This document shows, one piece after another, positions 6,073 to 32,000 of a stretch of DNA of 32,000 bases (positions are counted from its first letter, which is position 1; each line of letters begins with the position of its first letter). The notes beneath the pieces are model-generated. The model was not told the DNA's origin and searched no databases. It saw nothing but the letters and a program-made list of their open reading frames with translations. The stretch is taken from NCBI RefSeq assembly GCF_000260965.1, contig NC_017856.1, forward strand, positions 2,550,001 through 2,582,000, in the 5' to 3' direction. Both the position numbers and the translations under genes were made by a program. Source of the DNA: Methylophaga frappieri (GTDB taxonomy: Bacteria; Pseudomonadota; Gammaproteobacteria; Nitrosococcales; Methylophagaceae).

Positions 6073-9000
6073 ATGGTTAATTTAATTGTAAAGTTTGCCA
6101 TTCAGCAACGCTGGTTGGTGTTATTGATGACCCTGTTTATCGGTGGTTTAGGGGGTTATAACATGCTTCAACTTCCGGTCGATGCGGTACCGGATATCAC
6201 CAATAACCAAGTACAAATCAATACGGAGTTGCCGGGTTTTTCACCACTAGAAGCTGAGCAACGTGTGACGTATTTGGTCGAAAATGCCATGGCTGGCTTA
6301 CCAAATCTCGACTATACCCGCTCCATATCTCGCTATGGCTTGTCTCAAGTCACGGTTGTGTTTGATGAATCAGTCGATATTTATCTGGGACGCCAACAAA
6401 TCAGTGAGCGCCTGCAAGCAATTCGGGGCGACTTGCCGGTTGGGGCTGAGCCACAAATGGGGCCAGTAGCCAGTGGTCTGGGTGAAATATTTACCTATGC
6501 TGTGCGGGCTAAGACAGGCGCACTGCGTGCCGATGGGCAGTCCTATACCCCCGAAGATTTGCGGACAATACAAGACTGGATTATCCGACCACAGTTGGTC
6601 AAAGTACCCGGTGTCACTGAAATAAACAGTGTTGGCGGTTATGAGCGTATTTATCAAGTTGCCCCAAAGCCGGATCACCTCTTGGCATATAAGATCAGCA
6701 TGGCGGAATTATCGGCTGCGCTGCAGAACAACAACCAAAATGTCGGAGCAGGCTATATTGAACGCTATGGCGAGCAGTGGTTAGTTCGCTCTCCCGGTCA
6801 ATTACAGTCCTTAGCCGATATACGAAATGTGGTCATTCGTAAGCTTGACGACACGCCGGTAAGGGTAAGCGATGTCGCGGATGTGTCTTTAGGCAAACAA
6901 CTGCGTACCGGCGCGGCAACACTGGATGGGCAAGAAACGGTTCTGGGCACTGCGATGATGCTGCTGGGAGAAAATAGCCGGATAGTGGCCCGTGCCGTAG
7001 CGGAGAAACTGGTTCAAGTAAATCAAAGCTTGCCGGAAGGTATCGTTGCTGAAGCTGTTTATGATAGGACGACACTCGTTGATAAAACCATCCAGACGGT
7101 TCAAAAAAACCTGCTTGAAGGTGCCTTACTGGTTATCGTCGTGTTGTTCTTATTACTTGGTAATATCCGCGCTGCCTTGATAACCGCACTGGTTATTCCG
7201 CTCAGCATGTTATTTGCTGTGACCGGCATGGTCAGTAATAAAATTTCCGGTAACTTGATGAGTCTGGGCGCGATTGATTTTGGGCTGATCGTTGATGGCG
7301 CCGTGATTGTGGTCGAAAATGCCTTGTCACGCCTTAGTCTGGCGCAACAGCGCTTTGGGCGATTATTAACCTTATCAGAACGATTACAAACCGTCTCGGA
7401 GAGTACGCGGGAGGTCTTTAATCCAGCCGTGTTCGGTATGTTAATCATCATGCTGGTTTACCTGCCTTTGTTTGCCTTGTCAGGCGTGGAAGGCAAAATG
7501 TTCCAGCCAATGGCTTTTACCGTCATCGCGGCGCTGACTGGCGCGTTGATTTTTGCCGTGACTTTCGTGCCGGCCGCCATTGCGGTGTTTGTGACGGGGA
7601 GGGTATCTGAAAAAGAAAATTTCCTGATGCGATTTGCCCGACGCATTTATCAGCCTTTTTTAACGATCGCCTTGAAATTACCCTTTGTTGTTACGGTTAC
7701 AGCGTTAATATTTGTTATTTTCGTCAGTAGCTTAATTCCCCGCTTGGGCAGTGAGTTTTTGCCGCAGTTAGATGAAGGTGATGTTGCTTTACATGCATTA
7801 AGGATCACTGGAACCGGGCTTGAGCAATCGGTAAAAATGCAAAAGCAGTTGGACAGGGTGATTCGTGACTTTGATGAAGTGGAACGGGTATTTTCGAAAA
7901 TTGGCACACCTGATATTGCCACGGATCCGATGCCACCGAGTGTTGCTGATACCTTTGTCATTGTAAAACCGCAATCTGAGTGGCCGGATCCGCAGCAAAG
8001 CAAAGCCACGTTTTTATCCAAACTACGGGAAGCGGTTGAAGCAGTACCGGGCAATAAATATGAGTTTACCCAGCCAATTGAGATGCGTTTTAACGAACTC
8101 ATCGCCGGTGTTCGGGCTGACGTTGCCATTCGAATATATGGTGATGACCTGGATATTTTGGCCGAGCTTGGTGAACAAACAAGTTCGGTTATTCAGCTAA
8201 TTGAGGGCGCCCGAGATGTTCGGATGGAACAGGTCACCGGATTGTCCATGTTGTCAATTAACCCGCAACGCGATCACCTGGCATTACTGGGGTTAAACAT
8301 TTCGGCCTTACAGGATGCTTTGCAAATGGCGATGGGCGGGCAGGAACTCGGGCTGATTTATGAAGGCGATAAACGCTTTAAATTAGTGATGCGGTTTGAT
8401 GAAACGAAACGTCAAAATGTGGCTTACCTGGAAAAATTACCGGTTGCATTGCCGGAAAACGGCGACCCGGATCTATCCTACGTGCCATTGGGCGAAGTTG
8501 CCGATATCGAAGAAGTCAGCGCGCCAAGCCAAATCAACCGGGAAAGTGGCAAACGTAATGTCATCGTTAGTGCCAATGTCAGCGATGATCGGGATTTGGG
8601 GTCATTTATCGCTGAAGTTCAGCAAAAACTGCCCGATCAGGTTAACTATCCTGCCGGTTATTGGGTGGAGTATGGTGGCTCGTTTGAACAGCTGCAATCT
8701 GCACAAAAACGCTTATTGATTGTGGTACCGGTCACGTTGTTCGTCATTCTGGTTTTACTGTTTATGGCATTCAAATCCTTGCGTGATACCTTGCTTGTTT
8801 TCACTGGCGTTCCGTTGGCGTTGACCGGCGGGGTGCTGGCATTGTTCTGGCGGGAAATGCCCTTATCGGTTTCGGCAGCCGTTGGTTTTATTGCGCTTTC
8901 GGGCATCGCGGTATTGAACGGTATTGTTATGCTGATTTTTATTCGACAGTTGTGGGCACAGGGAAAGTCACTCCGAACAGCGGTGTTTGAAGGGGCAATG

Positions 9001-14589: not shown

Positions 14590-14759
14590 GCTGTCCTCGC
14601 GATGTGAATCGATCGGTATAGTGGAAATTAAGGCAACAAATTGTTCCACTGTCATAATGAACTAGCATAGTGTGGTGATGAAAAAAACTAAATACTTCTA
14701 TTCGCTGACTAAAACTTAGAATATGCAAAACTTTGTTTTCGGTATCGGATAAACAGGCG

Positions 14760-15377
14760 ATGACAGATTGGCAGAACAACAATTCTAATTGGGCTGGCTT
14801 GGCTTCCTTGGCATCGCTGCTTGTGATGCTGCTGGCGCCGGTAGTGTCGGCTTCACCGACTGATAGTGACGCTGATGATCGTGACCAATGCGGCGAGGCC
14901 AGGATTCATTATATTGATGATCCCGGCTTGAGTCGTGCAGAGCGCCTTGCACGCATGGAACAGGCATTTTTTGACTCGGTTAATCGCTTTGAAACTTGTG
15001 AATTAACGAGCACATCAGATAATCAAGGAAATAGTGCGCAACAGGGTGAGTCTGGACAAAACGGACCAGGAAGTGCAGGCCAATCTGGCGCAGCCAGCCA
15101 AGAGATGCAAGGCACCGAAGCGGCCAGTGAGGGGGAATTGCCTGTACCCGGAGATGGCCAGAGCCCATCAGACCAACCCGAGTCATCGACTGATTCACCG
15201 CCACTGACAGCAGGCAGTGATAACGGTGCGGTGCCTGAAGACATTCCATCCGCCAATAATGATGATGCCATTGCCGCGCAAATTCGTCGTGCCGCAGAGC
15301 TGGAGACTGACCCAGAGATTCGGCAAAAGCTCTGGAACGAATATCGAAAATATAAGGGGTTAGATGTTGTTGAATAA
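14760..15377 (+). CDS. Secreted acidic low-complexity protein with a conserved-looking C-terminal helix (operon gene 1)
   Basis: ATG 14760 gives the signal peptide ...LASLLVMLLAPVVSA/SP. Two Cys residues lie in the N-terminal part. A central S/G/Q/E/P-rich disordered stretch follows. The C-terminus is DDAIAAQIRRAAELETDPEIRQKLWNEYRKYKG. The track start at 14733 is a TTG. Confidence 0.6.
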   Translation: MTDWQNNNSNWAGLASLASLLVMLLAPVVSASPTDSDADDRDQCGEARIHYIDDPGLSRAERLARMEQAFFDSVNRFETCELTSTSDNQGNSAQQGESGQNGPGSAGQSGAASQEMQGTEAASEGELPVPGDGQSPSDQPESSTDSPPLTAGSDNGAVPEDIPSANNDDAIAAQIRRAAELETDPEIRQKLWNEYRKYKGLDVVE

Positions 15378-16608
15378 AGCTTGGGCCAATTTGCCCTATA
15401 AATTAGGTGTTTACCTGCTGATTTCGCTGCATATTTTAACGGGCTGCGCTGGAAGCGCCGGGCGGTCTGGTACAGTAGAAACGGGGCCGCAACCCGCGTC
15501 AAGCTACGATAAAGTAGATGAAAATCGCTATCTGGGTGTTAAACCTGAAGTAATTATCCCGGTATTTTCACCCGGTTTATCTGATTCAGAGGCGAATTAT
15601 GAGGAGGCGGGAATATGGCCGGAACTGAGACGTGCTGAAGCCAATCGCTTTGCTTTTCAATTAAAACAAGCGTTAGATAATCGCGATCATTTTAGTGCGG
15701 TCAGGGTGACGCCAAATAGTTCTGCGTCAGGAGATTTGTATTTATTGGGTGACATTATTGAATCAAATGGCCAGCGCGTTGCTTTTCGACTGACGGCAGT
15801 CGATGCCAGTAACCGGCAGTGGCTGTCTGAGACCTTTGAACATGAGGTGCATGAGGGGTTTTACAAAAATCCACGAAATACCGGACAAGATCCTTATCAG
15901 CCGGTGTTCGATGCAGCCGCGGAAGCCGTGATTGAAGCCCTGCTAAAACAAAAACAAAGCTATTTAACACAACTCAAATCCGTCTCAGAGATGCGTTTTG
16001 CAAATAGCTTTAGTGACGCTGCTTTTGGTGAATATCTGGATACCAGTGGCCGCTATATTGATTTGCAGGGTTTGCCAAGTGATGCTGATCCGATGTTTGA
16101 GCGAGTTAAATCAATACGTGTTCGCGAACAACTGTTTATTGATAATTTGCAGTCTCACTATCAGCAGTTCTCAACCAAAATGGACAGTAGTTATCTGGCC
16201 TGGCAACAGGCAAGCGCGACAGAACTGGCCTTGCAAAAAGAAGCTAAAAGAAAAAGTGTCTGGAAAATGCTGGGCGGTGTGGCATTAGTGGCGGCAGCGG
16301 TGGCAGCAGCGGTAAGCGGCAGCTCAGTGGATCAGAATATTGGCCGGGATGTCGCGGTAATTGCAGGGGGAGTGGGCGGTGCGCTATTGATTTCAAGCGG
16401 TTTCAAATCCCGTGAAGAAGCCAAATTTCACCAAGACGCATTAAATGAGCTTGGCGAATCCATCAATCTGGAAATGGCACCTCAGGTGATCACCTATGAA
16501 GAGGAATCTGTCGAACTGAGCGGAGATATTGAACAACAATTTCAACAATGGCGTGCTTTTCTGAATCGGATGTATCAGTTGGAAGCAACGCCAGATATTC
16601 AGCTATAG
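15364..16608 (+). CDS. Lipoprotein with a C-terminal glycine-zipper segment (operon gene 2)
   Basis: Lipobox LTGC with Ala at +2. AAGGGG RBS. Overlaps the upstream gene by 14 nt. The Gly/Ala-zipper hydrophobic pair GGVALVAAAVAAAVSGSS...VAVIAGGVGGALLISSGF lies at about nt 16270-16400. Confidence 0.7.
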   Translation: MLLNKAWANLPYKLGVYLLISLHILTGCAGSAGRSGTVETGPQPASSYDKVDENRYLGVKPEVIIPVFSPGLSDSEANYEEAGIWPELRRAEANRFAFQLKQALDNRDHFSAVRVTPNSSASGDLYLLGDIIESNGQRVAFRLTAVDASNRQWLSETFEHEVHEGFYKNPRNTGQDPYQPVFDAAAEAVIEALLKQKQSYLTQLKSVSEMRFANSFSDAAFGEYLDTSGRYIDLQGLPSDADPMFERVKSIRVREQLFIDNLQSHYQQFSTKMDSSYLAWQQASATELALQKEAKRKSVWKMLGGVALVAAAVAAAVSGSSVDQNIGRDVAVIAGGVGGALLISSGFKSREEAKFHQDALNELGESINLEMAPQVITYEEESVELSGDIEQQFQQWRAFLNRMYQLEATPDIQL

Positions 16609-16620
16609 GCGGGCAGCACG

Positions 16621-18039
16621 ATGCACGACAAACTCGCTGCTGCGCGTCAGCAAAGACGCCGCCGATTACTGCAAACGGTCAGTATGATGCTGATACTGAG
16701 CATGGCCGGTATTGGCGCTATTTACTGGGCTGCACAACCTGACCCATCGACGCCGGCTGTATCTACGCAGCCGGACAATCTGACACCATCGCAAAACGCG
16801 CTGGCAAATGAGCAGGCACGCGCTGCTTATCTTGATGCTTACGCACAATTTGACTCGACTCTCAAGCCGCAGCTGAGCAACACGGATATAAAAGCCTGGC
16901 GACCAGATCTGGCCACGCAGCTGAGTGAATTGGAGTCACAGGCTGTCACACATTTTGCCGCCGGTGATTACCTGCAAGCACAGACCGGTCTCAGCCAGTT
17001 AGTCACCCTGGCAGAACAGACCATTGCTGAGGTGGAGACCGCATTTTCAACATCCATGATCACAGCGCAGAACGCCTTTGACAATAATGACTATCCGGTT
17101 GCCAAGCAGTCGATAAATACCGCTATGCTGTTGAATACATCAGATAAAGCCGCTCAAGACTTGGCTGAACGCATTGAACAGATACCCAAAATCACGGATT
17201 TGATTCGACAAATCAATGCGGCGCAGTCTCAACAAAATAAACAATTGGAACGCAGTCTCATTTCACAGCTACTTCAATTAACGCCAGAGCGCACGGTTTA
17301 TCAGCAACGTGCGGCTGAACTTGAGACGCTAATTAAAACGGATCAGTTTAATGAACAAATCCGTCGTGCTTATCGTGCGCTTGAAGATGGACAAGTTGAC
17401 ACGGCGCAGTCAGCCTTAAAGGCAGCGAAACAGATTTATCCTGCCCGTGAGGAGGTCAAAAACGTACAGCAGGCGATTCAGCAATATCAACAAAAGCAAC
17501 AGATAAGCACCTTGCAAAAGCAGATTGCAACGGCCCGGCGTACCGATGACTGGCAAGCCGTGTTAACGCATTTGCAGGCGTTAGAAACGCTTGTGCCGCA
17601 GGCGGCAAGTCATGCCGCAGAGATGGCAAAAGCGAGGCAAATAGTCAGCCTTGATAAAGCGTTCACCACGGCCTTGGCGGCCCCTTTTTCATTATCGGCA
17701 GAAACTGCCGCCAATCAGATGCGTTCTGCAATTACCAATGCGAAACAATATCGTGCTGACAGTGTCAGCCTTGCACAAAAAACCGATAAGGTTGCTGATT
17801 TGCTGACGGCGTTAAACCAGCCGGTCGCTGTGACGATTAACTCGGATAAGCAGACTTTTGTCAGTGTTCGCGGCGTTGGTAAAGTTGGGGAGGTCATCAG
17901 TAAAACCATTCAACTGAAACCCGGCCAGTACACGTTGGAAGGCAAAAGAGTCGGCTACAAATCTAAGTTAAAAACTATTGATGTGCCCTTGGATCATACC
18001 CCGGTTTCGCTTACCTTGATCTGTGATGAAGCCATTTAA
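16621..18039 (+). CDS. Bitopic membrane protein: basic N-tail + TM + long helical-repeat (TPR-like) periplasmic region + C-terminal PEGA-like beta domain (operon gene 3)
   Basis: The N-terminus AAARQQRRRRLLQTVSMMLILSMAGIGAIYW is followed by about 380 aa that are A/Q/L-rich and helical. The C-terminus VAVTINSDKQTFVSVRGVGKVG...GQYTLEGKRVGYKSK resembles a PEGA fold. Confidence 0.65.
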   Translation: MHDKLAAARQQRRRRLLQTVSMMLILSMAGIGAIYWAAQPDPSTPAVSTQPDNLTPSQNALANEQARAAYLDAYAQFDSTLKPQLSNTDIKAWRPDLATQLSELESQAVTHFAAGDYLQAQTGLSQLVTLAEQTIAEVETAFSTSMITAQNAFDNNDYPVAKQSINTAMLLNTSDKAAQDLAERIEQIPKITDLIRQINAAQSQQNKQLERSLISQLLQLTPERTVYQQRAAELETLIKTDQFNEQIRRAYRALEDGQVDTAQSALKAAKQIYPAREEVKNVQQAIQQYQQKQQISTLQKQIATARRTDDWQAVLTHLQALETLVPQAASHAAEMAKARQIVSLDKAFTTALAAPFSLSAETAANQMRSAITNAKQYRADSVSLAQKTDKVADLLTALNQPVAVTINSDKQTFVSVRGVGKVGEVISKTIQLKPGQYTLEGKRVGYKSKLKTIDVPLDHTPVSLTLICDEAI

Positions 18040-20032
18040 ACACGCGCTTGAAGCTGCGCAAAAAAGACACCGGCGTCGGTTAGTCTGGATGCTGGTGGCG
18101 TTACTGACGACCTCCGTGGTTATCGTAACCATACTAGGGATTTCCCGTGGCACCCGTATTGTCGTTCTCCCCGAAGCGGCTTTGCCAGCAAAGATAAGCA
18201 TGACGGAAGGTGTAGGCATGGTGTTGTTTAATTCGGTTTATGCGCTAACGGACTCGCCCCGGATACGCGTCAGCGCCCTGCAATATCAGACATATGAACA
18301 TCAATTATTGCCTGAACAGCAAGGCAAACGACTTCATATCACTTTAGAACCAAAGCCGGCTGAAGTACGTTTTAGCACCGATCCAGAGGAAAGCCTGACA
18401 CGCTGGTACCTTAATAATGAATTTATTTCTGAGTCGGATACGCTGCAACAAAGCTTGTTACCCGGCGAATATGATTTAAAAATCGATCATCCTTACTACG
18501 AACAGATCAACAAAGCAGTTTCGTTGACAGCAGGGCAACATCGGCATGAGATCGTCGTATTGACGCCCATCACTGGCCAATTGCAGATTACCTCTACGCC
18601 GCCCGGTGCGGTGATTCATGTCGATAATCAAGTGATCGGTGAATCGCCTTTGACGCACCCCATTTCAGGTGGTGTTTACCAGATAACTCTCTCCAAATCG
18701 GGTTTTGATACGGTCACCGAAACGCTGGAAGTAACGCGCAATCATAAACAGGTATCGCGGGTATATCAGCTACCGGCTGCACAAACCACGGTGTCCCTGT
18801 CTTTGTCGCCTGGCGGTGGCAGCTTGACTGTAGATGACATTGTGCAGCCGGCGGCAAAAACCATTCAATTGGCCGCGGGACAAGCTCACCGGGTTGTGTA
18901 TCAAAAAGCAGGCTATGTCACACAACAGCAAATTGTGACGCCACCGTTAGGTCAACCGTTAGCCTTGAATTTTGATTTGCAGGAAGCCCGAGGTCAGGTG
19001 CAAATCATGGCGACGCCCCAAGCGGCAGTATCCATTGACGGCAAACGCGTCGGGGAGACGCCACTGACATTAACACTGCAAACTGTGCCACAGCAGCTCA
19101 GTTTTCAACACCCAGGTTATCGCACAATCACACAAACCGTGACGCCGAGTCGTGATGTGACACGTCAGGTATCGGTTACGCTGATTCCAGAAGCGCAGGC
19201 CCAGCTTGCTGAATCGCCAAAACGTTATCAGCATCCTGCTGGGGGAGAGATGTTGTTGTTTCAGCCGAATACGGTATTCACGCTTGGTGCGGCACGAGAC
19301 AGTCAAGGCCAGCGTGCCAATGAGTTTTTACATAAGGTGCATCTGAATAGGCCATTTTACGCCGGTGTAACGGAAGTCAGTATTGGCGAATATCAACAGT
19401 TTGATACCAGCAAAACCGGTAACAAAGCGGAACCGATAACGGCAATCAGCTGGCTGGATGCCGCACGGTTTTGTAATTGGCTCAGCGAACAGCAAGGGCT
19501 GCCACCCGTTTACCAATTTTCAAACCAAAAACTCATCGCAATTGACATAACAGCAAATGGCTACCGATTATTGACTGAAGCAGAGTGGGAGTGGCTGGCC
19601 AGATCAGCAAAGCGCCCGCAGCCAACCCGGTTTGCTTGGGGTGATAGCACCACGCTGCCAAAACACGCTGCGAATATTGCCGATGAGCAGGCCAAGACAG
19701 CAGTCGCTATGTACGTACCGCAATATGATGATGGTTATGCCGGCGTTGCACCAATCGGTCGTTTCTCTAAAGAGATCAGTGGATTACAAGATCAAGCTGG
19801 CAATGTCAGTGAATGGACGCATGATGTTTATCGTTTGACCCCGCCTGATTCAGAAACCATTTTTCCACAACAACTGGATAAGCGCTTACTGGCGGAACGT
19901 GTGGTAAAAGGAGCAAACTGGCAGTCAGGATCGCTGACAACCTTACGTGCAGCGTATCGAGAAGGCCTAAGCCAGCCGCGAAAGACAGTCGGCTTTCGTG
20001 TTGGTCGCTATCTGAATAAGGGAGAGCAATAA
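18026..20032 (+). CDS. Bitopic membrane protein with about 4 PEGA domains and a C-terminal FGE-sulfatase (SUMF1-like) domain lacking the catalytic cysteines (operon gene 4)
   Basis: ATG at 18026 (GTG at 18023), overlapping the upstream gene. N-terminus EAAQKRHRRRLVWMLVALLTTSVVIV. PEGA motifs include ITSTPPGAVIHVDNQVIGESPL (about 18590) and IMATPQAAVSIDGKRVGETPL (about 19005). FGE-domain motifs: VSIGEYQQF, ISWLDAARFCNWLS, YRLLTEAEWEWLAR, GNVSEWTHD, RVVKGANW, GFRVGR. Confidence 0.8.
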   Translation: MKPFKHALEAAQKRHRRRLVWMLVALLTTSVVIVTILGISRGTRIVVLPEAALPAKISMTEGVGMVLFNSVYALTDSPRIRVSALQYQTYEHQLLPEQQGKRLHITLEPKPAEVRFSTDPEESLTRWYLNNEFISESDTLQQSLLPGEYDLKIDHPYYEQINKAVSLTAGQHRHEIVVLTPITGQLQITSTPPGAVIHVDNQVIGESPLTHPISGGVYQITLSKSGFDTVTETLEVTRNHKQVSRVYQLPAAQTTVSLSLSPGGGSLTVDDIVQPAAKTIQLAAGQAHRVVYQKAGYVTQQQIVTPPLGQPLALNFDLQEARGQVQIMATPQAAVSIDGKRVGETPLTLTLQTVPQQLSFQHPGYRTITQTVTPSRDVTRQVSVTLIPEAQAQLAESPKRYQHPAGGEMLLFQPNTVFTLGAARDSQGQRANEFLHKVHLNRPFYAGVTEVSIGEYQQFDTSKTGNKAEPITAISWLDAARFCNWLSEQQGLPPVYQFSNQKLIAIDITANGYRLLTEAEWEWLARSAKRPQPTRFAWGDSTTLPKHAANIADEQAKTAVAMYVPQYDDGYAGVAPIGRFSKEISGLQDQAGNVSEWTHDVYRLTPPDSETIFPQQLDKRLLAERVVKGANWQSGSLTTLRAAYREGLSQPRKTVGFRVGRYLNKGEQ

Positions 20033-20172
20033 TGCAACGCTTCAAAAAGCCAATACGCGCTGGTGTCTCGGCGCTGATCCTTTTTTTTGTCGGCGTGTTG
20101 TTGCACAGCGCCTATGCCGATAAGCCGGTGATAAGTCTGAACTCGCCGGTTTCCTTTCCGGTGGATATCTAA
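20032..20172 (+). CDS. Unannotated 46-aa micro-ORF encoding a signal peptide plus a 17-aa mature peptide (operon gene 5)
   Basis: My own translation is MQRFKKPIRAGVSALILFFVGVLLHSAYA/DKPVISLNSPVSFPVDI. Its ATG shares one nt with the upstream TAA (20030-20032). Its TAA (20170-20172) abuts the ATG at 20173. It is below the 60-aa cut-off of the supplied track. Confidence 0.5.
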   Translation: MQRFKKPIRAGVSALILFFVGVLLHSAYADKPVISLNSPVSFPVDI

Positions 20173-20934
20173 ATGAATGAGATGTTGAAGAGTTTTGCGG
20201 CACTGGTGGTGGCCATTGTGATAGTGCATATGGTTTATTTGGGCTATATCCGACCGGAGGCCGCGCAATATATTGCTATCGGTCTCGAGCAGCAACAGTC
20301 ATTACCGCGGAATTTTGTCGTCATTGTTAAAGGTTACGAACAGGAAATTTGTTTTATTCTGATGCTGTGGGGCTGTTACTTGATAGCCAGTGCCTATCGC
20401 CGCATTCTGAAAACGCAATATCTTTATAGCGTAGATCTGATTGAAACGACGGAGTCCAACGATAGTGCATTGGATGTGAATCAGATCATTGACCGGCTGG
20501 ATACCGAAATTCCCAAAGAGGGATTGGCTTCACCATTGGTTCAGACCTTGCGGGCGGCACTATGGCGATATAGTGCGACGAATAATGTGCAAAACTTATC
20601 GGATGCTATCGAGAGTAATCTGGAAGCGCTTGCGGTGCGTCAGGATACGGAAAACACCATGATTCGCTATTTAATTTGGGCGATTCCGTCCATCGGCTTT
20701 ATCGGGACAGTCCGAGGGATTGGTCAAGCGTTGTCTCAGGCTGATGAAGCACTGGCCGGTAATATTGCCGGCATGGTTGATAGCCTTGGTCTGGCATTTA
20801 ACTCGACGCTGGTGGCGCTGTTAATCAGCATTTTTCTGATGTTTTTGTTTCACCAACTGCAACGTCTGCAAGATGGTCAAATAGTCGAAACGCAGCATTA
20901 TTGCGATAAATATTTGTTAAGACGCATTCGCTGA
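20173..20934 (+). CDS. MotA/TolQ/ExbB-family proton-channel (stator) protein (operon gene 6)
   Basis: 253 aa with a 2 TM + about 85-aa loop + 2 TM layout. IWAIPSIGFIGTVRGIGQAL and LGLAFNSTLVALLISIFLMF match the conserved TolQ/ExbB TM pair (aPllGllGTV.Gi...). Confidence 0.85.
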   Translation: MNEMLKSFAALVVAIVIVHMVYLGYIRPEAAQYIAIGLEQQQSLPRNFVVIVKGYEQEICFILMLWGCYLIASAYRRILKTQYLYSVDLIETTESNDSALDVNQIIDRLDTEIPKEGLASPLVQTLRAALWRYSATNNVQNLSDAIESNLEALAVRQDTENTMIRYLIWAIPSIGFIGTVRGIGQALSQADEALAGNIAGMVDSLGLAFNSTLVALLISIFLMFLFHQLQRLQDGQIVETQHYCDKYLLRRIR

Positions 20935-20940
20935 TTGGTC

Positions 20941-21999
20941 ATGCTGCGACGTAAACGCACTGAAGGATTTAATCTGGCGTTTCTGGATATCATGGCCTGT
21001 GGCCTTGGCGCGGTGATTCTGGTGTTTATGTTAGTCAAACAAAATCTGGAATCGGCAGCTTCCGAAGTAGACCGCTTGCAAGCGGATATTGCTAGGCTTG
21101 AACAAACACAGCAGGAGGCGAATCAGACGTTGCGTCAAATCCGAGACGATTTCAGCCAACAAAAACAAGATCTTGAACAACAATCCTCAGCGCTGGCTGA
21201 CAGACAGGCAGCGCTGAGCGCTCAGCGCAGTGCCATCAGCGACGCGGAGCAAGCACTGGCTAAACTGAAGTCGCGCATTACCGAAATTGAAATACCCGAG
21301 CAACAGGATTTAGTGTCATCAGATAACCTCAACGAAGAAAACTATCTGATGGGCCTTCAAGTGACGGGCAATAAAATCGGGATTCTGGTCGATATGAGCG
21401 CGTCCATGACCAATGAAAAGTTGATCGATATTATCCAGACCAAAAGTCGCACTAATCAGGACAAACAAAGCGCTGCCAAGTGGATACGTACTAAAAATAC
21501 GGTGCGCTGGCTGCTGGCCAGACTGCCAGCAAACAGTGACATTGTCGTTGTGGCTTTTAGTGAGCAGGCACAGGTATTGGGCGGCCAGTCAATGCAACCG
21601 GCGAACGAGACAACTGTCGGTCAAATCCTGCAATCTTTAGACAAGGTGATTCCAGAGGGCGGCACCAACCTGCAAAAAGGCCTGAATACAATCAATGATT
21701 TTTCGCCAGATCATTTGTATGTAATTACAGATGGATTGCCCACACTGGGCGAATCTTCTTATCGCAGTTTAAATCCGTTTGCCCAGTGCCGGTCGCTGAC
21801 AGGTAATGCCCAGACTATTTCTGGTCCGTGTCGGGTCAAACTTTTTCAACAAACCGTGCGAGAGAGTGGACAACGCAGTAACGAAGTTAATGTCGTGCTG
21901 TTACCCTTGGAAGGGGATCCGGATGCCGTCAATCAATATTGGGGTTGGGCTGCGGCAACAGGGGGCCTGTTAATCAGTCCCGCGGAAAACTGGCCATGA
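20941..21999 (+). CDS. ExbD/TolR-like Asp-containing TM anchor + coiled coil + vWA domain with complete MIDAS (operon gene 7)
   Basis: ATG at 20941 (the track used TTG 20935). N-terminus MLRRKRTEGFNLAFLDIMACGLGAVILVFMLVK, with D16 at 20986-20988. An about 85-aa heptad-like Q/A/L/E-rich segment follows. vWA motifs: DMSAS (21391-21405), GGTNL, ITDG. Confidence 0.8.
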   Translation: MLRRKRTEGFNLAFLDIMACGLGAVILVFMLVKQNLESAASEVDRLQADIARLEQTQQEANQTLRQIRDDFSQQKQDLEQQSSALADRQAALSAQRSAISDAEQALAKLKSRITEIEIPEQQDLVSSDNLNEENYLMGLQVTGNKIGILVDMSASMTNEKLIDIIQTKSRTNQDKQSAAKWIRTKNTVRWLLARLPANSDIVVVAFSEQAQVLGGQSMQPANETTVGQILQSLDKVIPEGGTNLQKGLNTINDFSPDHLYVITDGLPTLGESSYRSLNPFAQCRSLTGNAQTISGPCRVKLFQQTVRESGQRSNEVNVVLLPLEGDPDAVNQYWGWAAATGGLLISPAENWP

Positions 22000-22949
22000 A
22001 ATCGCGTAAAAAAACACTGGATATTTTCAGTTTATCGTTTCTGGATATCATTTCCTGCGGCTTTGGTGCTGTGGTGATGTTAATCCTGATAGCCAAACCG
22101 GATACCGCAATCTCCCAGGCGGGACAGAGCAATATCAGCGAGATGTTGGCAACCTTGGTAGGCCTTAAAAACACGGTCACCATAACGCAACAGCAAATTG
22201 AATCTGAACTTGCCAGTTTAGAGGCATTATCGGTTGAGCAGGCCGCCGCGCGTCAGGCACAAGCTGATCTGCAAAAACAACAGCAACAACTTGCTGCGGC
22301 TGATGCGGCATTAACTGACAATATAAGTGGCCTCAGTCTGGTCGAGTCACGTTTGCGCCAGGCGGCGTTGACAACACCACGTCAAAACACGCCGGAAGTG
22401 CGTTCAGAAGCCGTGGGTGGGATTCCGGTCGATAGTGACTATGTCGTTTTTATTATTGATACCTCTGGCAGTATGCAACGCATCTGGTCTCGGGTATCAC
22501 GAGAAGTCGTCAATGTGTTGAATATTCATCCGGAAGTGAAAGGCTTTCAGATTCTGAACGACTTGGGAACGTCTATGATCTCCGGTTATGACGGCAAATG
22601 GATGTCAGACACGCCCGCAACGCGAAACAACGTGATTCGCATGTTTGACAAGTGGTCAGTGGTTTCCAACAGCAGCCCGGTCGAGGGGATCGAGACCGCA
22701 TTACGAAAATATGCTAAACCCAACATTACGACCTCTATTTACGTTTTCGGTGATGACTATACCGGTGGCTCATTTGATAATGTGATTGCGCGAATTACCC
22801 AACAAAACCGGGTTCTTAGCAATGGGCAACGGTTGGCCCGCATTCATGGTGTTGGTTTTCTGTCGATGAGCAGTACCGAACGATACGGTATTTTGATGCG
22901 GGAGCTAACCAAGCAAAATGGTGGCACCTATTTGGCGCTGCCGCCTTAA
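21996..22949 (+). CDS. Paralogous ExbD/TolR-like TM anchor + coiled coil + vWA domain with variant MIDAS (operon gene 8)
   Basis: Start at ATG 21996, within an ATGA overlap with the upstream stop. N-terminus MKSRKKTLDIFSLSFLDIISCGFGAVVMLILIAK, with D17 at 22044-22046. Coiled coil. DTSGS at 22458-22472. The Thr loop reads NSSPVEG instead of GGT. FGDD replaces TDG. Confidence 0.8.
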   Translation: MKSRKKTLDIFSLSFLDIISCGFGAVVMLILIAKPDTAISQAGQSNISEMLATLVGLKNTVTITQQQIESELASLEALSVEQAAARQAQADLQKQQQQLAAADAALTDNISGLSLVESRLRQAALTTPRQNTPEVRSEAVGGIPVDSDYVVFIIDTSGSMQRIWSRVSREVVNVLNIHPEVKGFQILNDLGTSMISGYDGKWMSDTPATRNNVIRMFDKWSVVSNSSPVEGIETALRKYAKPNITTSIYVFGDDYTGGSFDNVIARITQQNRVLSNGQRLARIHGVGFLSMSSTERYGILMRELTKQNGGTYLALPP

Positions 22950-24276: not shown

Positions 24277-26484
24277 ATGGATACTGGTCTAAACACACTT
24301 GTCGCGATCGCGCGTTTTCATCAGCTGCCCGCAGAACCTGAACAGCTCGCTCACCAATATGGTGTGCCCGGCGAGGTATTTACTGACACCCAAATTCTGC
24401 AAGCCGCAAAAGCGTTAACCCTCAGAGCAAAAAAACTCAAACCGGTTACCAACGACATTGGCAATGGCATGCTGCCCGCGATTGCCAAGGCAAAAGATGG
24501 CAGTTATTTCATCCTTGCCCGTATTGCGAATAATGAAGAAGCTGAGCAGGCGAAAAAGTCAGGCGTACTGATTCAAGATCTTCGTGATGAAGCACCAAAA
24601 AGTCTGACCCTGGATGAGTTTACCGAAATCTGGTCTGGCGAACTGATTGCATTGACACGACGACAAGGCATCGGTGAAAGCCTGCAGCAAACGTTCGACA
24701 TCTCCTGGTTTATTCCTTCTCTTATCAAATATCGTAAACTCTTCTCCGAAGTCCTCGTCGCCTCTTTCTTCCTCCAGCTCTTTGCTCTAGTCACCCCGCT
24801 GTTTTTCCAGGTCGTTATGGACAAGGTTCTGGTACACCGTGGTTTTACCACGCTGGATGTGCTGGCGGTTGGATTCTTCGTTGTCGTTGTCTTTGAGGCG
24901 CTGCTTGGCGGTATTCGCAATTATGTGTTCAGTCATACCACCAACCGGGTCGATGTTGAGTTAGGCTCACGCCTTTATACCCATCTGATGGCACTGCCGC
25001 TGTCTTATTTTGAATCAAGACAGGTAGGGCAGAATGTGGCTAGGGTTAGAGAACTGGATACTATCCGTAACTTTATTACCGGTACCGCACTGACATTGGT
25101 GATTGACCTGTTCTTTGTTTTCGTTTTCCTTGCGGTCATGTGGTACTACAGTCCGACATTGACCTGGATTGTACTGGCAACCATACCGTTCTATGTCATT
25201 CTCTCAATCTTTATCACGCCGATTTTAAGAAAACGGCTTGATGATAAGTTCAAGCACGGCGCTGAAAACACCGCCTTTCTCACAGAGTCTATAACAGGAA
25301 TTGGCACGGTAAAATCCCTGGCGGTCGAACCCCAGATGAAACGCAAACTGGAAGACCACCTTTCCAACTATGTGCATGCCTCGTTTAAAAGCCAGAACCT
25401 CAATAATGTGGCTAACCAGATAGCTGGGTTAGTCAACAAACTCATGACGCTAGGCATTATCTGGTGGGGAGCGCATCTTGTAATTGATAACCAGCTCACA
25501 GTGGGGCAACTTGTGGCCTTTAATATGCTTGCCGGCAGAGTGAGTGGCCCCATCCTCAAGCTGGTTCAACTCTGGCAAGATTTCCAGCAGGCAGGTATCT
25601 CCATCAAACGGCTGGGCGATATACTTAATACGCCGAGAGAGCCAGGTTTTAACCCCAACCGTTCACGCCTGCCATCTTTGCAAGGCGCCTTCTCGATGGA
25701 GCATGTCCGGTTTCGCTACCGCCCGGATGGCCCGGTTATTCTTGATGACTTAAACCTACAAGTCAGGCCGGGGGAAGTGATTGGCCTTGTTGGCCGAAGC
25801 GGCAGTGGCAAAAGCACTATCACTAAATTAATACAGCGGCTCTATATTCCAGAGTCCGGCAAGGTCTTGATTGATGGTGTTGACCTGTCAGTGGTTGATA
25901 CTGTCTGGCTTCGTAAACAAATTGGTGTCGTGCTACAAGAGAACTTCCTGTTCAATCGCAGCATTCGTGAGAATATTGCCTTAAGCGACCCATCCATTTC
26001 GATGGAACGTGTGATTGCGGCCTCAAAAATGGCCGGTGCTCATGAGTTCATTGTTGACTTGCCTGAAGGCTACGATAATTTGGTCGGCGAACAAGGCAGT
26101 AATTTATCGGGCGGTCAGCGCCAACGATTGGCCATCGCTCGCGCCTTAATCAATAATCCTCGTATCCTCATTTTTGATGAGGCGACCAGTGCGCTTGATT
26201 ATGAGTCAGAGCGACTGATACAAGACAATATGGCGAAGATTTGTCAGGGCAGGACCGTGTTTATCATTGCTCATCGACTGACTGCGGTGCGTCAGTGCAA
26301 TCGAATTATCGTGACGGAGAAAGGGCGTATCGTCGAGCAAGGCAATCATGAAGAGCTGATTGCCAAAAATGGCTACTACGCCAAACTACACAGTTATCAA
26401 AACCACACTCCGAATCTGCACCCTGTAACTCACAACGCTGCTCAAGCGACACCTGAGGGAAGTTTGGAAGGTGCACGACCATGA
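24277..26484 (+). CDS. hlyB: Type I secretion ABC transporter, HlyB family, with a degenerate N-terminal C39-like domain
   Basis: 735 aa, collinear with E. coli HlyB: FDISWFIPSLIKYRKLF, LQLFALVTPLFFQVVMDKVLVHRGF, VARVRELDTIRNF, IAFNMLAG-type motifs. Walker A GRSGSGKST at 25792-25818, LSGGQRQR, ILIFDEATSALD. The position of the C39 catalytic Cys reads DTGL (HlyB has DYGL). Confidence 0.93.
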   Translation: MDTGLNTLVAIARFHQLPAEPEQLAHQYGVPGEVFTDTQILQAAKALTLRAKKLKPVTNDIGNGMLPAIAKAKDGSYFILARIANNEEAEQAKKSGVLIQDLRDEAPKSLTLDEFTEIWSGELIALTRRQGIGESLQQTFDISWFIPSLIKYRKLFSEVLVASFFLQLFALVTPLFFQVVMDKVLVHRGFTTLDVLAVGFFVVVVFEALLGGIRNYVFSHTTNRVDVELGSRLYTHLMALPLSYFESRQVGQNVARVRELDTIRNFITGTALTLVIDLFFVFVFLAVMWYYSPTLTWIVLATIPFYVILSIFITPILRKRLDDKFKHGAENTAFLTESITGIGTVKSLAVEPQMKRKLEDHLSNYVHASFKSQNLNNVANQIAGLVNKLMTLGIIWWGAHLVIDNQLTVGQLVAFNMLAGRVSGPILKLVQLWQDFQQAGISIKRLGDILNTPREPGFNPNRSRLPSLQGAFSMEHVRFRYRPDGPVILDDLNLQVRPGEVIGLVGRSGSGKSTITKLIQRLYIPESGKVLIDGVDLSVVDTVWLRKQIGVVLQENFLFNRSIRENIALSDPSISMERVIAASKMAGAHEFIVDLPEGYDNLVGEQGSNLSGGQRQRLAIARALINNPRILIFDEATSALDYESERLIQDNMAKICQGRTVFIIAHRLTAVRQCNRIIVTEKGRIVEQGNHEELIAKNGYYAKLHSYQNHTPNLHPVTHNAAQATPEGSLEGARP

Positions 26485-27881
26485 GGCCGTTTACCGTTTT
26501 CTGGGATGCCTGGAAAAATCGCCACACAATGGGGCAGGGCAGTAAAACACGCGAGCTTGCCGCCTTTTTACCGGCTGCACTGGAGATACAGGAAGCGCCA
26601 CCCAATCCCCTTGCCAAATGGCTAGGCCGCAGCTTGATTATTTTATTCCTGATAGGAGTTGTCTGGGCTTGTGTCGGCGAAGTTAATATCGTCGCTAGTG
26701 CCGAAGGCAAGATTATTCCCAGCGCTAGAGTCAAACAAATCCAGCCACTGGAAAAGGCTGTGGTCAAAACCATTCTGGTCAGCGAAGGCGAAGAAGTTAG
26801 AAAAGGTCAGCCCTTGGTCGAGTTGGACAGCACGCTCACTTCAGCAGACGAAAAAAGGCTCACTTCTGAGCGCCACAGTATTCAGATGCAACTGGCGGTG
26901 AAACAAGCGCTGCTGACAGCGTTAAGCGCTAACAAAACTGTCCCCGCTGAACAAGTCAAACTGACCTTCTCGAAGAATAACGCTGAGCATGATACCAGCC
27001 TTTATCAGCAATTACTCTGGCAGCACTGGCAGGATTATCAAAGTCAGCAGCAGACCCTGCAAAATACCTTGAATAAAACCCGGTTTGAGCAGGCGGCCAG
27101 TAAAGAAATTATTAAAAAACTTCAGCAAACACTGCCCATCGTTACCAAGCGGGCTGAGGACTTGCAAAGCCTGCATCAGCAAAGCTTTGTGACTGAAACA
27201 GAGTACCTGGATCTGGAACAACAGCGCATCGAACAAACACAAGATCTGGCAGCGGAAAAGCATCGGCTACAGCAACTTGTTGCGGCCGAATCTGAAGTCA
27301 AGCATCAACTGCAAACACTCGCAGCTCAAACCAAGGCCAGAACATTACAAGAAATCACCGAATACCAACGTCAAATCGCCTCACTGGATGAGGAGCTCAC
27401 CAAAGCGCAGGATTTAAATGCCAAACAAATCCTCTACGCGCCGGTATCAGGGCAAGTGCAGGAGCTTGCCATCAACACAGTGGGTGGTGTGGTAACCGAA
27501 GCCCAGCAGCTGATGCTGATTGTGCCTAATGCAGAGCAACTGGAAGTGGAAGTGTTTCTGGAGAACAAAGACATTGGTTTTATTGAAGAAGGCATGCCGG
27601 CAGAAATCAAAGTCCATACTTTCTCTTTCACTAAATACGGTGTGATTGATGCCAAAGTTACCACCGTCTCCGATGATGCCACCGTCGATGAAAAACAGGG
27701 CTTGATTTACCGAATGCAGTTACTGATGAGTAAAAACGCAATCATGGTTGATAGTCGTGAAGTGAAGTTAATGCCTGGTATGGCTGTGACAGCTGAGATG
27801 AAAACTGGGACTAGGCGGATTATTGAGTTCTTTTTGGCGCCATTGTTAAGACACGGTAATGAGAGCTTGAGGGAGCGGTGA
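26481..27881 (+). CDS. hlyD: Type I secretion membrane fusion protein, HlyD family
   Basis: 466 aa. ATGA overlap with hlyB. N-terminal cytoplasmic tail + TM (LIILFLIGVVWACVG). Long coiled-coil hairpin. C-terminal beta-barrel ending RRIIEFFLAPLL, as in HlyD. Confidence 0.9.
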   Translation: MRPFTVFWDAWKNRHTMGQGSKTRELAAFLPAALEIQEAPPNPLAKWLGRSLIILFLIGVVWACVGEVNIVASAEGKIIPSARVKQIQPLEKAVVKTILVSEGEEVRKGQPLVELDSTLTSADEKRLTSERHSIQMQLAVKQALLTALSANKTVPAEQVKLTFSKNNAEHDTSLYQQLLWQHWQDYQSQQQTLQNTLNKTRFEQAASKEIIKKLQQTLPIVTKRAEDLQSLHQQSFVTETEYLDLEQQRIEQTQDLAAEKHRLQQLVAAESEVKHQLQTLAAQTKARTLQEITEYQRQIASLDEELTKAQDLNAKQILYAPVSGQVQELAINTVGGVVTEAQQLMLIVPNAEQLEVEVFLENKDIGFIEEGMPAEIKVHTFSFTKYGVIDAKVTTVSDDATVDEKQGLIYRMQLLMSKNAIMVDSREVKLMPGMAVTAEMKTGTRRIIEFFLAPLLRHGNESLRER

Positions 27882-31700: not shown

Positions 31701-32000
31701 CACCTTTGTGTTTGGTAATGGTGATGGAACCGACATCATCCGTGATACGGATGATGAAGATATCATTCAATTTAAAGCAGGTATTTCATTAGATTCCATC
31801 ACTTCAACACAACAAAGCTCCACGAGTCAGTTTTTATTAATTGAGTATGGTGATGGAAATTCTCTTAGAGTCAAAAATGGTATAGAAAATCTAATTTCTG
31901 CATTTAAATTTAGTGATGGTACCAGCTTTGACTCAAACTCATTTTTAAAACAAACACTCAAAGAAGAAGTCATCACGACACTCAGTGAAGCAGCTATAAG
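28720..32000 (+). CDS. Large RTX protein with an N-terminal alpha/beta-hydrolase (class-3-lipase-like) domain; 3'-truncated by the window end
   Basis: It is not in the supplied track because no stop occurs. I translated the frame by hand from ATG 28720/28723 (AAAGGAG RBS) to nt 32000 without meeting a stop. Motifs: AVRGTDDPFD, GHSLGG (29128-29145, Ser at 29134-29136), YNAPGVGG. Three blocks of GGxGxDxUx nonapeptides follow. The post-RTX segment is GDGTDIIRD...IIQF...FKFSDGT. Confidence 0.88.
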   Translation, partial: MMTANNLFQQALLAEAAYADFWNHATEQLITDSSLIAAALTFEGFSQTQAEEFVDEWTVRAHQPNTFSGLSVTVFENLNGDKVLAVRGTDDPFDVITDLGILEGVTPEQTTQYQELKDLVDGWLDDGTLDSGFTVSGHSLGGFLAGGLLVDYPDDISHAYIYNAPGVGGLLAEFGILTGHLDPSIDLSLISNVVAAYGVDGTADWGISWGEQIPINIEGEDTQIWGNHEVKRLTDALALYSLFETLSPSIDNKFIAALLPTGSNNGEWDLDGLLNSLGVLLGIGQESILSDREAYYQRFIEISGGIFVDPDAEIPVLKSEYENLQFVNIFSLVDSANLDNADGFAYRYALQQLTPFAITGNEDLYEQHNLSGELNADNFTESYLEDRKLMLNAILQRNTLNSTNPDKIDGEAIRFDDAKIGEVFAGAYSSGQGGSNPLNGSDVTNIIFGDENNNNGSNTLLGNQQNDRIYGLSGNDVLDGGAGDDYLEGGTGVDTYIYDQNDGFDTIFDKDGLGVINWKGTVLDGSYDFANNNTFIDETLGVTYQFEPDLNGRGTLYIIDNNSPGNGGIKVIDFVSGNLGIVIDTGEITEETGGILNTGTASNDVLYPDGYDQGFPHGYDLQADIADQIFGIDGNDFIVSGGGNDIVYGGDGNDWIYAGIGNDTLYGEAGDDYIFTMSGDNKAYGGDGNDIIISNHAVKFNIDNLPLQHDEWSRLFHTFRGAYAGITTTETGQLNILLKWTGAESGFIDGDYEYIPDPAGYDLGNVDINGDSYTLSATFSSSIDEGKNVFSGGAGDDILIGNDGADILTGGIGSDKLAGNGGNDALFGEADDDLLKGAAGEDFLDGGSGNDELFGEQGNDRVYGGDGDDFIWGDSDYLDENLHGDDYLDGGEGNDQLVGGAGDDTLVGGAGEDTLFGQQGADILHGDAGKDVLDGGAGDDILRGGSDEDDLWGGDGNDRLYGGSGADYLEGEAGDDLLEGGAGNDTFWGGDGADTFVFGNGDGTDIIRDTDDEDIIQFKAGISLDSITSTQQSSTSQFLLIEYGDGNSLRVKNGIENLISAFKFSDGTSFDSNSFLKQTLKEEVITTLSEAAI
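30133..30798 (+). repeat. RTX nonapeptide repeat blocks 1 and 2 (calcium-binding GGxGxD repeats)
   Basis: LSGNDVLDGGAGDDYLEGGTGVDTYIY (30133-30213) and GIDGNDFIVSGGGNDIVYGGDGNDWIYAGIGNDTLYGEAGDDYIF..YGGDGNDIII (30610-30798), separated by non-repeat sequence. Confidence 0.85.
31090..31710 (+). repeat. RTX nonapeptide repeat block 3 (about 20 tandem GGxGxDxUx units in two runs)
   Basis: SGGAGDDILIGNDGADILTGGIGSDKLAGNGGNDALFGEADDDLLKGAAGEDFLDGGSGNDELFGEQGNDRVYGGDGDDFIWG, then DGGEGNDQLVGGAGDDTLVGGAGEDTLFGQQGADILHGDAGKDVLDGGAGDDILRGG...GGAGNDTFWGGDGADTFVF. Confidence 0.9.

Follow-up and report, generated by a model that had tools for sequence, protein, structure and literature searches.

The ion-driven motors of the 5:2 type (MotAB, ExbBD, TolQR, GldLM and ZorAB) share one engine, which each of them uses for a different output. 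Here we describe a pair of genes from Methylophaga frappieri, vWA1 and vWA2, whose products probably form, as a pair, the central axle of a proton-driven inner-membrane motor of this type. The pair lies in a 32,000-nt stretch of the genome (assembly GCF_000260965.1, contig NC_017856.1, positions 2,550,001-2,582,000, forward strand), hereafter the window; coordinates in this genome are given as window positions, and the seven cassette genes described below, with their features, are on the + strand. The closest described systems come from a computational study (PMC12204202; Mol Biol Evol 2025, msaf138), which predicts “TPH-vWA” pairs next to tolQ-like genes (its section 8 and Fig. 4c-d). According to its passages on this design, vWA homologues tethered by a transmembrane (TM) segment co-occur tightly with tolQ homologues in the absence of a tolR or exbD gene, occur mostly as heterologous pairs, and carry a TolR/ExbD-like trans-pore helix with a conserved Asp, which AF3 models of the complexes put inside a ring of Thr. 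The family is reported there mainly from Proteobacteria and Verrucomicrobia, and its seed is from Idiomarina loihiensis.

The Methylophaga locus resembles the pairs in those passages in its C-terminal vWA folds, its Asp-bearing trans-pore helices, its heterologous pairing, its adjacent tolQ-like gene, the lack of tolR, exbD and motB, the conserved Thr ring of the presumed pentamer (seen here through a weak alignment to TolQ) and its place in the Proteobacteria. Judged by these sequence features, it is a further case of a design predicted by computation in 2025, and the passages concerned arrive independently at the same model for TM-tethered vWA pairs beside tolQ-like genes. The original prediction for this locus had held that a vWA domain in place of the usual periplasmic domain was not a described stator architecture, a statement that the 2025 study has made outdated. 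The parts of that study that deal with the design make no mention of coiled coils or of PEGA or FGE proteins, and neither the conservation of a metal ion-dependent adhesion site (MIDAS) nor a seven-gene cassette was found described in them; the stalks, the MIDAS conservation, the PEGA/FGE partners and the cassette set out below may add to the published description.

vWA1 (20941..21999, 352 amino acids (aa)) and vWA2 (21996..22949, 317 aa) are the last two genes of a cassette of seven (14733-22949), arranged in the order gene 1, gene 2, gene 3, gene 4, MotA-like gene, vWA1 and vWA2. The likely start of vWA1 is the ATG at 20941, the mechanically called open reading frame (ORF) beginning at the TTG at 20935; both products are 100% identical to NCBI protein entries. 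Relatives of vWA2 are encoded in at least 550 species, as counted by a scan of one genome per species, and locus analyses were made on the best 80 of these. The best 80 carriers include Methylophaga, Thiotrichaceae, Nitrosomonadaceae, Rhodospirillales, Magnetovibrio, Aestuariispira, Denitrobaculum, Mariprofundus and other Zetaproteobacteria, Desulforhopalus, Desulfobacula and Binatia. Searches with phmmer against all ORFs of each locus recovered the same seven genes, in near-equal order and with near-equal sizes, in each of the 80 species-level loci that has enough flanking sequence. The order is kept in Gamma-, Beta-, Alpha- and Zetaproteobacteria, Desulfobacterota and Binatia (loci L004-L080, L084 and L087), and the cassette persists in the relative L084 at 31% identity. 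In another relative, L087, a fusion of genes 3 and 4 (6230-8932 of that locus) encodes one 900-aa protein that joins the TPR and PEGA/FGE parts. All 80 loci and three distant ones have the vWA1/vWA2 pair itself, always as exactly two paralogous genes. The ATG of vWA2 at 21996 overlaps the stop codon of vWA1 by 4 nt (ATGA), an overlap that is kept in 59 of 63 loci, suggesting that translation of the two is coupled and equimolar (1:1). No flanking gene family is conserved across loci, and the 270-aa gene downstream is not conserved either, which suggests that the cassette is a self-contained unit that moves horizontally.

Both vWA proteins begin with a basic tail (MLRRKRTEG in vWA1 and MKSRKKTLD in vWA2) followed by a TM helix. 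The helix of vWA1 is FNLAFLDIMACGLGAVILVFMLV (residues 10-32, 20968..21036), with D16 at 20986-20988, and that of vWA2 is FSLSFLDIISCGFGAVVMLILIA (residues 11-33, 22026..22094), with D17 at 22044-22046; they have the motif F-L-D-I-(M/I)-x-C-G-(L/F)-G-A-V in common. Residue conservation was read from species-level orthologue sets (n=63 for vWA1, n=81 for vWA2 and n=72 for the MotA-like protein), in which D16 is present in 63/63 and D17 in 81/81 sequences. For more distant relatives, an exhaustive vWA1 search of 1.84 billion cluster representatives returned 194 at E <= 1e-30 and 395 at E <= 1e-10, and conservation was read from the best 150 of these, with identity down to 29%. The Asp is found in 131 of the 132 distant representatives that have an N-terminus, the sole exception being a broken fragment, and C20, G21 and G23 are nearly invariant among the best 150. 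A large protein search with a 41-residue profile of the TM helix returned only fragments of at most 72 aa. The positions that the original prediction gave for the two Asp residues are confirmed by reading the DNA, and the conservation of the Asp in orthologues, on which it had let its model depend, is clear from these counts.

The similarity of the helices, called near-identical in the original prediction, is more than chance, as shown by a BLASTP match between vWA1 and vWA2 (E 1e-8) that aligns the tail and TM-helix region only, and by family hidden Markov models (HMMs) that match each other at E 1e-15 to 1e-18. A comparison of the two families with hhalign (98.9% probability, E 1.5e-17) runs from the TM helix through the stalk to the first β-strand, with its DxSxS motif, and no further. 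Because the alignment covers the helix, stalk and first strand and then stops, we conclude that vWA1 and vWA2 are paralogues whose heads have diverged past sequence recognition, so that their kinship there shows only in the fold. In both proteins the Asp stands about six residues into the helix after the basic tail, as do D23 of TolR, D25 of ExbD and D32 of MotB in Escherichia coli K-12. Set on the Asp, the known axles read PLL-D23-VLLVLL (TolR), PFI-D25-VMLVLL (ExbD) and AYA-D32-FMTAMM (MotB), and the vWA helices read AFL-D16-IMACGL (vWA1) and SFL-D17-IISCGF (vWA2). The context [FL]-[LI]-D-[VI]-[ML] of the Asp in the vWA helices is like PLLDVLL of TolR and PFIDVML of ExbD.

Upstream of vWA1, and separated from it by 6 nt, lies a gene (20173..20934) for a 253-aa protein of the MotA/TolQ/ExbB family, the proposed pentameric part of the motor, which matches the Pfam family MotA_ExbB (PF01618) at E 7e-13, with 48.9 bits against a gathering cut-off of 22.9. 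Its motifs PSIGFIGT179VRGIG and AFNST212LVAL are invariant across the orthologues, with both Thr in 72/72, and P172 (20686-20688), T179 (20707-20709) and T212 (20806-20808) are the invariant residues that fall, in a weak hhalign alignment with E. coli TolQ (E 3.5e-4), on P138, T145 and T178, the two Thr of TolQ being pore-lining. Hydropathy shows four hydrophobic segments, which suggests a protein with four membrane segments in a MotA-like layout. The MotA-like protein also gives weak matches to ZorA (PADLOC E 9.4e-5; NCBIfam E 0.02), as might be found if the cassette were a Zorya-like anti-phage defence system with a MotA-like/axle sensor. These matches, however, span only the MotA_ExbB core that the families share; the protein lacks the long ZorA tail (its own is of 27 residues), neither a peptidoglycan-binding domain of the ZorB type nor an effector like ZorC/D is present, and the remaining products of the cassette are directed to the periplasm. 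The sequences are also well conserved between phyla (vWA2 46-77% identity), which would be unusual for defence genes. With weak matches to the ZorA core only, identity as a defence system was rejected, and we give it hardly any credence.

The cassette holds no other candidate for an axle: no protein encoded in it matches ExbD, TolR, MotB or OmpA in Pfam or NCBIfam, and no such gene is conserved in the flanks. With 32 kb of genome in view, TolR or ExbD genes may lie elsewhere, and the vWA proteins might then be peripheral force transducers like TolA or TonB, standing outside a pentamer whose axle is a TolR or ExbD from another locus. The 2025 study does describe, in the part concerned, a separate vWA family with a TolA-like mode (PMC12204202); that family, however, adjoins tolQ together with two tolR-like genes, and there are none here. 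The vWA helices, moreover, have no His and no SHLS-type motif, and have the invariant Asp instead. Since the cassette appears to travel on its own between unrelated genomic contexts and phyla, dependence on a host-specific TolR is unlikely, and we regard a TolA-like role as very improbable.

Beyond the membrane, AlphaFold2 (AF2) models of vWA1 and vWA2, made as single chains, show a common plan of a long helix, a disordered linker and an α/β domain. In vWA1 the model helix spans residues 21-113, so that the heptad stalk (residues 34-113, 21040..21279) is continuous with the TM helix; hydrophobic residues fill 78% of its a/d positions against 19% elsewhere, a value reached by 0 of 20000 shuffles. 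The helical stalk of vWA2 (residues 44-123, 22125..22364, all helix in the model with pLDDT 57-75) has weaker heptads, with 68% hydrophobic a/d positions against 34% (518 of 20000 shuffles). Heptad-like segments after the helices had been part of the original prediction; the heptad test is strong for the first and weaker for the second. Residues 34-43 of vWA2 (22095-22124) form a non-helical break, with Pro and Gly in it, between TM helix and stalk, with a nearly invariant G43, unlike the helix of vWA1, which is predicted to leave the membrane without a break. In a heterodimeric axle, this asymmetry of the models might matter.

The head of vWA1 (residues 145-340, 21373..21960) is modelled with pLDDT ~90 and matches Pfam VWA_2 at 8.8e-9 and solved vWA structures, by Foldseek, at E ~1e-8; sequence and profile searches of PDB sequences with vWA1 gave no useful match. 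The head of vWA2 (residues 148-315, 22437..22940) has no Pfam match, and its assignment to the vWA fold is by Foldseek of the model only (E 3e-7). Structural neighbours of the heads include 4fx5, ITIH1, CMG2/ANTXR2, Cav α2δ, BatB and integrin I domains. A vWA domain in both proteins agrees with the original prediction, as does a complete MIDAS in vWA1, where D151 (21391-21393), S153 (21397-21399), S155 (21403-21405) and D264 (21730-21732) are each conserved in 63/63 and T242 (21664-21666) in 62/63 orthologues. Among the best 150 distant representatives of vWA1, at least 144 of ~146 sequences retain the MIDAS residues, the Thr position being Thr in 136 and Ser in 10. For vWA2, the predicted variant MIDAS with a retained DxSxS is upheld, but NSSPVEG and FGDD, which had been read as departures at the other positions, are not losses: with the register judged visually on the modelled secondary structure, S227 of NSSPVEG takes the place of the MIDAS Thr and D253 of FGDD that of the MIDAS Asp. 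D155 (22458-22460), S157 (22464-22466), S159 (22470-22472) and D253 (22752-22754) are each conserved in 81/81 orthologues and S227 (22674-22676) in 78/81. As S227 and D253 fall on the MIDAS Thr and Asp positions in the model and are conserved, the site of vWA2 reads as a conservative Thr-to-Ser variant, not a decayed one, and is predicted to bind metal.

The structural matches of the heads, which include BatB and a Bacteroides aerotolerance vWA protein (3ibs, 4jdu), raise the question of whether the pair consists of membrane-anchored scaffold or adhesion modules like BatA and BatB, which are also membrane-anchored periplasmic vWA proteins with a MIDAS. The link to the MotA-like protein would then be regulatory or structural, and the TM Asp would serve packing or oligomerisation; polar residues in TM helices do often drive helix association, and proton coupling in the Methylophaga system is a matter of inference. 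Bat operons carry MoxR ATPase and DUF58 genes, however, and neither was found in the cassette, for which reason identity with a Bat operon was rejected. What the cassette has instead is a MotA-like neighbour and, in each vWA protein, an Asp-bearing single helix. Both helix Asp residues, the two pore Thr and the absence of a further axle gene are conserved together, a combination that makes little sense unless the parts are coupled, and we consider a Bat-like role unlikely. Each of the three rival explanations (defence system, TolA-like transducer and Bat-like module) conflicts with at least one of the features tested.

Several features fit a periplasmic location of the vWA heads, as proposed in the original prediction. 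The basic tails conform to the positive-inside rule, all four proteins encoded upstream of the MotA-like gene bear an export signal (signal peptide, signal-anchor or lipobox), and vWA1 has a co-conserved Cys pair, C283 (21787-21789) and C297 (21829-21831), whose members are kept or lost together (88 and 87 of the best 150 distant representatives, respectively). The pair fits a periplasmic disulfide.

We thus return to the axle. Because the vWA genes adjoin a PF01618 gene with pore Thr, have an invariant helix Asp and are accompanied by no other axle gene, we infer that the two proteins are the axle of the motor. The MotA-like protein would form a pentameric outer ring, and the N-terminal helix of each vWA protein would insert into the pore of this pentamer, giving a 5:2 stoichiometry, with D16 and D17 facing the ring of conserved T179 and T212. 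Alternate protonation of D16 and D17 would make ring and axle rotate against one another, as happens in MotAB, ExbBD and TolQR. The axle would continue as a heterodimeric coiled coil of ~80 residues, for which ~1.5 Å per helical residue gives an estimated length of ~12 nm, followed by flexible linkers and by two metal-dependent MIDAS heads in the periplasm. The heads may grip acidic residues of partner proteins, the likeliest being the secreted acidic protein, the glycine-zipper lipoprotein, the TPR protein and the PEGA/FGE-fold protein of the same cassette, and force or rotation derived from the proton motive force (PMF) would in this way reach a complex of the outer envelope. The original prediction of a paralogous axle inside a MotA-like pentamer is supported, indirectly, by the PF01618 neighbour, the pore Thr, the invariant Asp and the strict pairing; homology of the helix to ExbD/TolR is not supported.

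Several results weigh against the proposed axle. When the vWA families were compared with E. coli TolR and ExbD by hhalign, nothing was found, and a Pfam search with the 50-residue N-termini gave no match to ExbD/TolR (PF02472) even at E 10. Since neither method detects anything, the resemblance to ExbD/TolR that had been predicted for the helices is one at the level of motif, where it also extends to MotB, and homology is not claimed. AF2 confidence is low in the TM regions of both proteins (pLDDT 30-50). The pairwise profile match of the MotA-like protein to TolQ is weak (37% probability at the E-value given above), and in sequence and profile searches of the PDB the protein matches no solved 5:2 motor. 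Kinship to the Idiomarina loihiensis seed of the 2025 family is unconfirmed, the assignment to the TPH-vWA kind being by the features described in the relevant passages (PMC12204202). Finally, one distant vWA pair (P0495) adjoins a gene for an FHA-domain protein (L086 10-888 and L085 3-389) and not a MotA-like gene. The FHA-domain protein upstream of this pair is cytoplasmic and has no match to the MotA-like family HMM; the P0495 contigs, which are metagenomic, are of 2-3.5 kb, and either the context is a variant one or a MotA-like gene may lie past the contig end.

The four upstream genes encode the candidate partners of the axle. Gene 1 (14733..15377, start codon uncertain) encodes a secreted acidic protein of 214 aa that bears a signal peptide and, in C53/C89, a conserved Cys pair; it further has a disordered linker of Gly, Ser and acidic residues that varies in length, and the invariant C-terminal motif PEDIP..ND..AQIR..LWNEYRKYKGL. 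It has no Pfam match and is a possible MIDAS ligand. The product of gene 2 (15364..16608) is a 414-aa lipoprotein with the lipobox LTGC (Cys28), Ala at +2 and two glycine-zipper-like hydrophobic segments near the C-terminus (residues 302-346). It matches the YiaD glycine-zipper model of NCBIfam weakly (E 0.005) and belongs to no Pfam family, and a search of the PDB with its family profile gave no relative. Gene 3 (16621..18039) encodes 472 aa with an N-terminal signal-anchor, TPR-like helical repeats (weak TPR matches of the family profile against the PDB, E 2e-4) and a conserved C-terminal β domain that appears PEGA-like by eye. Gene 4 (18023..20032) encodes 669 aa with an N-terminal signal-anchor, PEGA repeats (Pfam PEGA, 1.4e-29) and a domain of the FGE-sulfatase fold (Pfam FGE-sulfatase, 1e-29). 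Its top NCBIfam match is GldK/PorK (E 9e-18), with 64.8 bits, far under the 350-bit cut-off. Catalysis by the formylglycine-generating enzyme (FGE) requires a Cys pair, and as this protein has a single Cys (C484) in its 669 residues, it is probably not a working enzyme of that kind.

A wider reading of the cassette, which we put forward tentatively and hold to be rather doubtful, is that of a PMF-driven, envelope-spanning machine of a new functional class, complete in itself and spread horizontally, in which a MotA-like pentamer would turn the coiled-coil axle and the MIDAS heads of the axle would mechanically engage an outer complex made of the GldK-like FGE-fold/PEGA protein, the TPR protein, the glycine-zipper outer-membrane lipoprotein and the secreted acidic protein. 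If this were true, the system would be, in principle, a proteobacterial counterpart of the GldLM-GldK arrangement, and its role might lie in secretion, surface remodelling or outer-membrane maintenance. Literature searches on PEGA, FGE, MotA and vWA in combination found nothing on the cassette.

Some observations concern the surroundings of these genes. In the distant cassettes an extra small gene, of 94 or 76 aa, precedes the MotA-like gene (8853-9137 in L084 and 8920-9150 in L087); in the window, its position corresponds to a 140-nt gap between the PEGA/FGE and MotA-like genes. Inside this gap is a terminator-like hairpin with a T-rich tail (20057-20074). Promoter and terminator scans of the region gave site counts no higher than in shuffled sequence. 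Downstream of the cassette lie a type I secretion pair (24277-27881), made up of an HlyD protein and an ABC exporter that carries a C39 peptidase domain, and, from ~28720 to the window end at 32000, a very large ORF that continues past the window and matches RTX repeats at least 13 times; a strong GC skew at the window end is due to this ORF. A functional link of the cassette to the secretion and RTX genes or to the 270-aa gene was rejected, none of them being conserved with the cassette.

Among the experimentally known motors, those of E. coli, ExbB-ExbD and TolQ-TolR, resemble the Methylophaga system in having a MotA_ExbB partner with two pore Thr and a basic tail followed, about six residues into the helix, by an Asp in the context [LF][LI]D[VI][LM]. 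In contrast, the system described here has no ExbD/TolR periplasmic domain or Pfam ExbD match and no TonB or TolA partner; it has instead a periplasmic coiled coil and a vWA head, and its proposed ring subunit appears to have four hydrophobic segments and not three. MotA-MotB is similar in its four-TM layout (a probable one here), in the conserved Pro and Thr of TM3 and in an Asp-bearing single-pass partner. It differs in that the proteins described here show no match to OmpA or MotB_plug and so have no OmpA-like peptidoglycan-binding domain, the C-terminal domain being vWA, that no flagellar genes belong to the conserved cassette, and that the proposed axle is a heterodimer of paralogues, whereas that of MotB is a homodimer. 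The likeness to GldL-GldM/PorL-PorM with GldK/PorK is one of idea only, namely a dimeric axle whose long shaft crosses the periplasm in the direction of an outer-membrane-associated complex with an FGE-sulfatase-fold protein; there is no relation in sequence to GldL or GldM, and the FGE-fold protein here has PEGA repeats and an inner-membrane anchor. To our knowledge, the lineages that carry the cassette lack the type IX secretion system. If the proposed axle is real, it would add a further type of output to the 5:2 motors, namely a stalk of ~12 nm that ends in two metal-dependent adhesion heads, and would come with a defined set of four candidate partners in a group of seven genes whose order is shared by at least six major lineages. 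As a compact system with all components encoded side by side, it is directly approachable by structural work and genetics, and could reveal how rotation or pulling is passed to a target that is neither TonB nor peptidoglycan.

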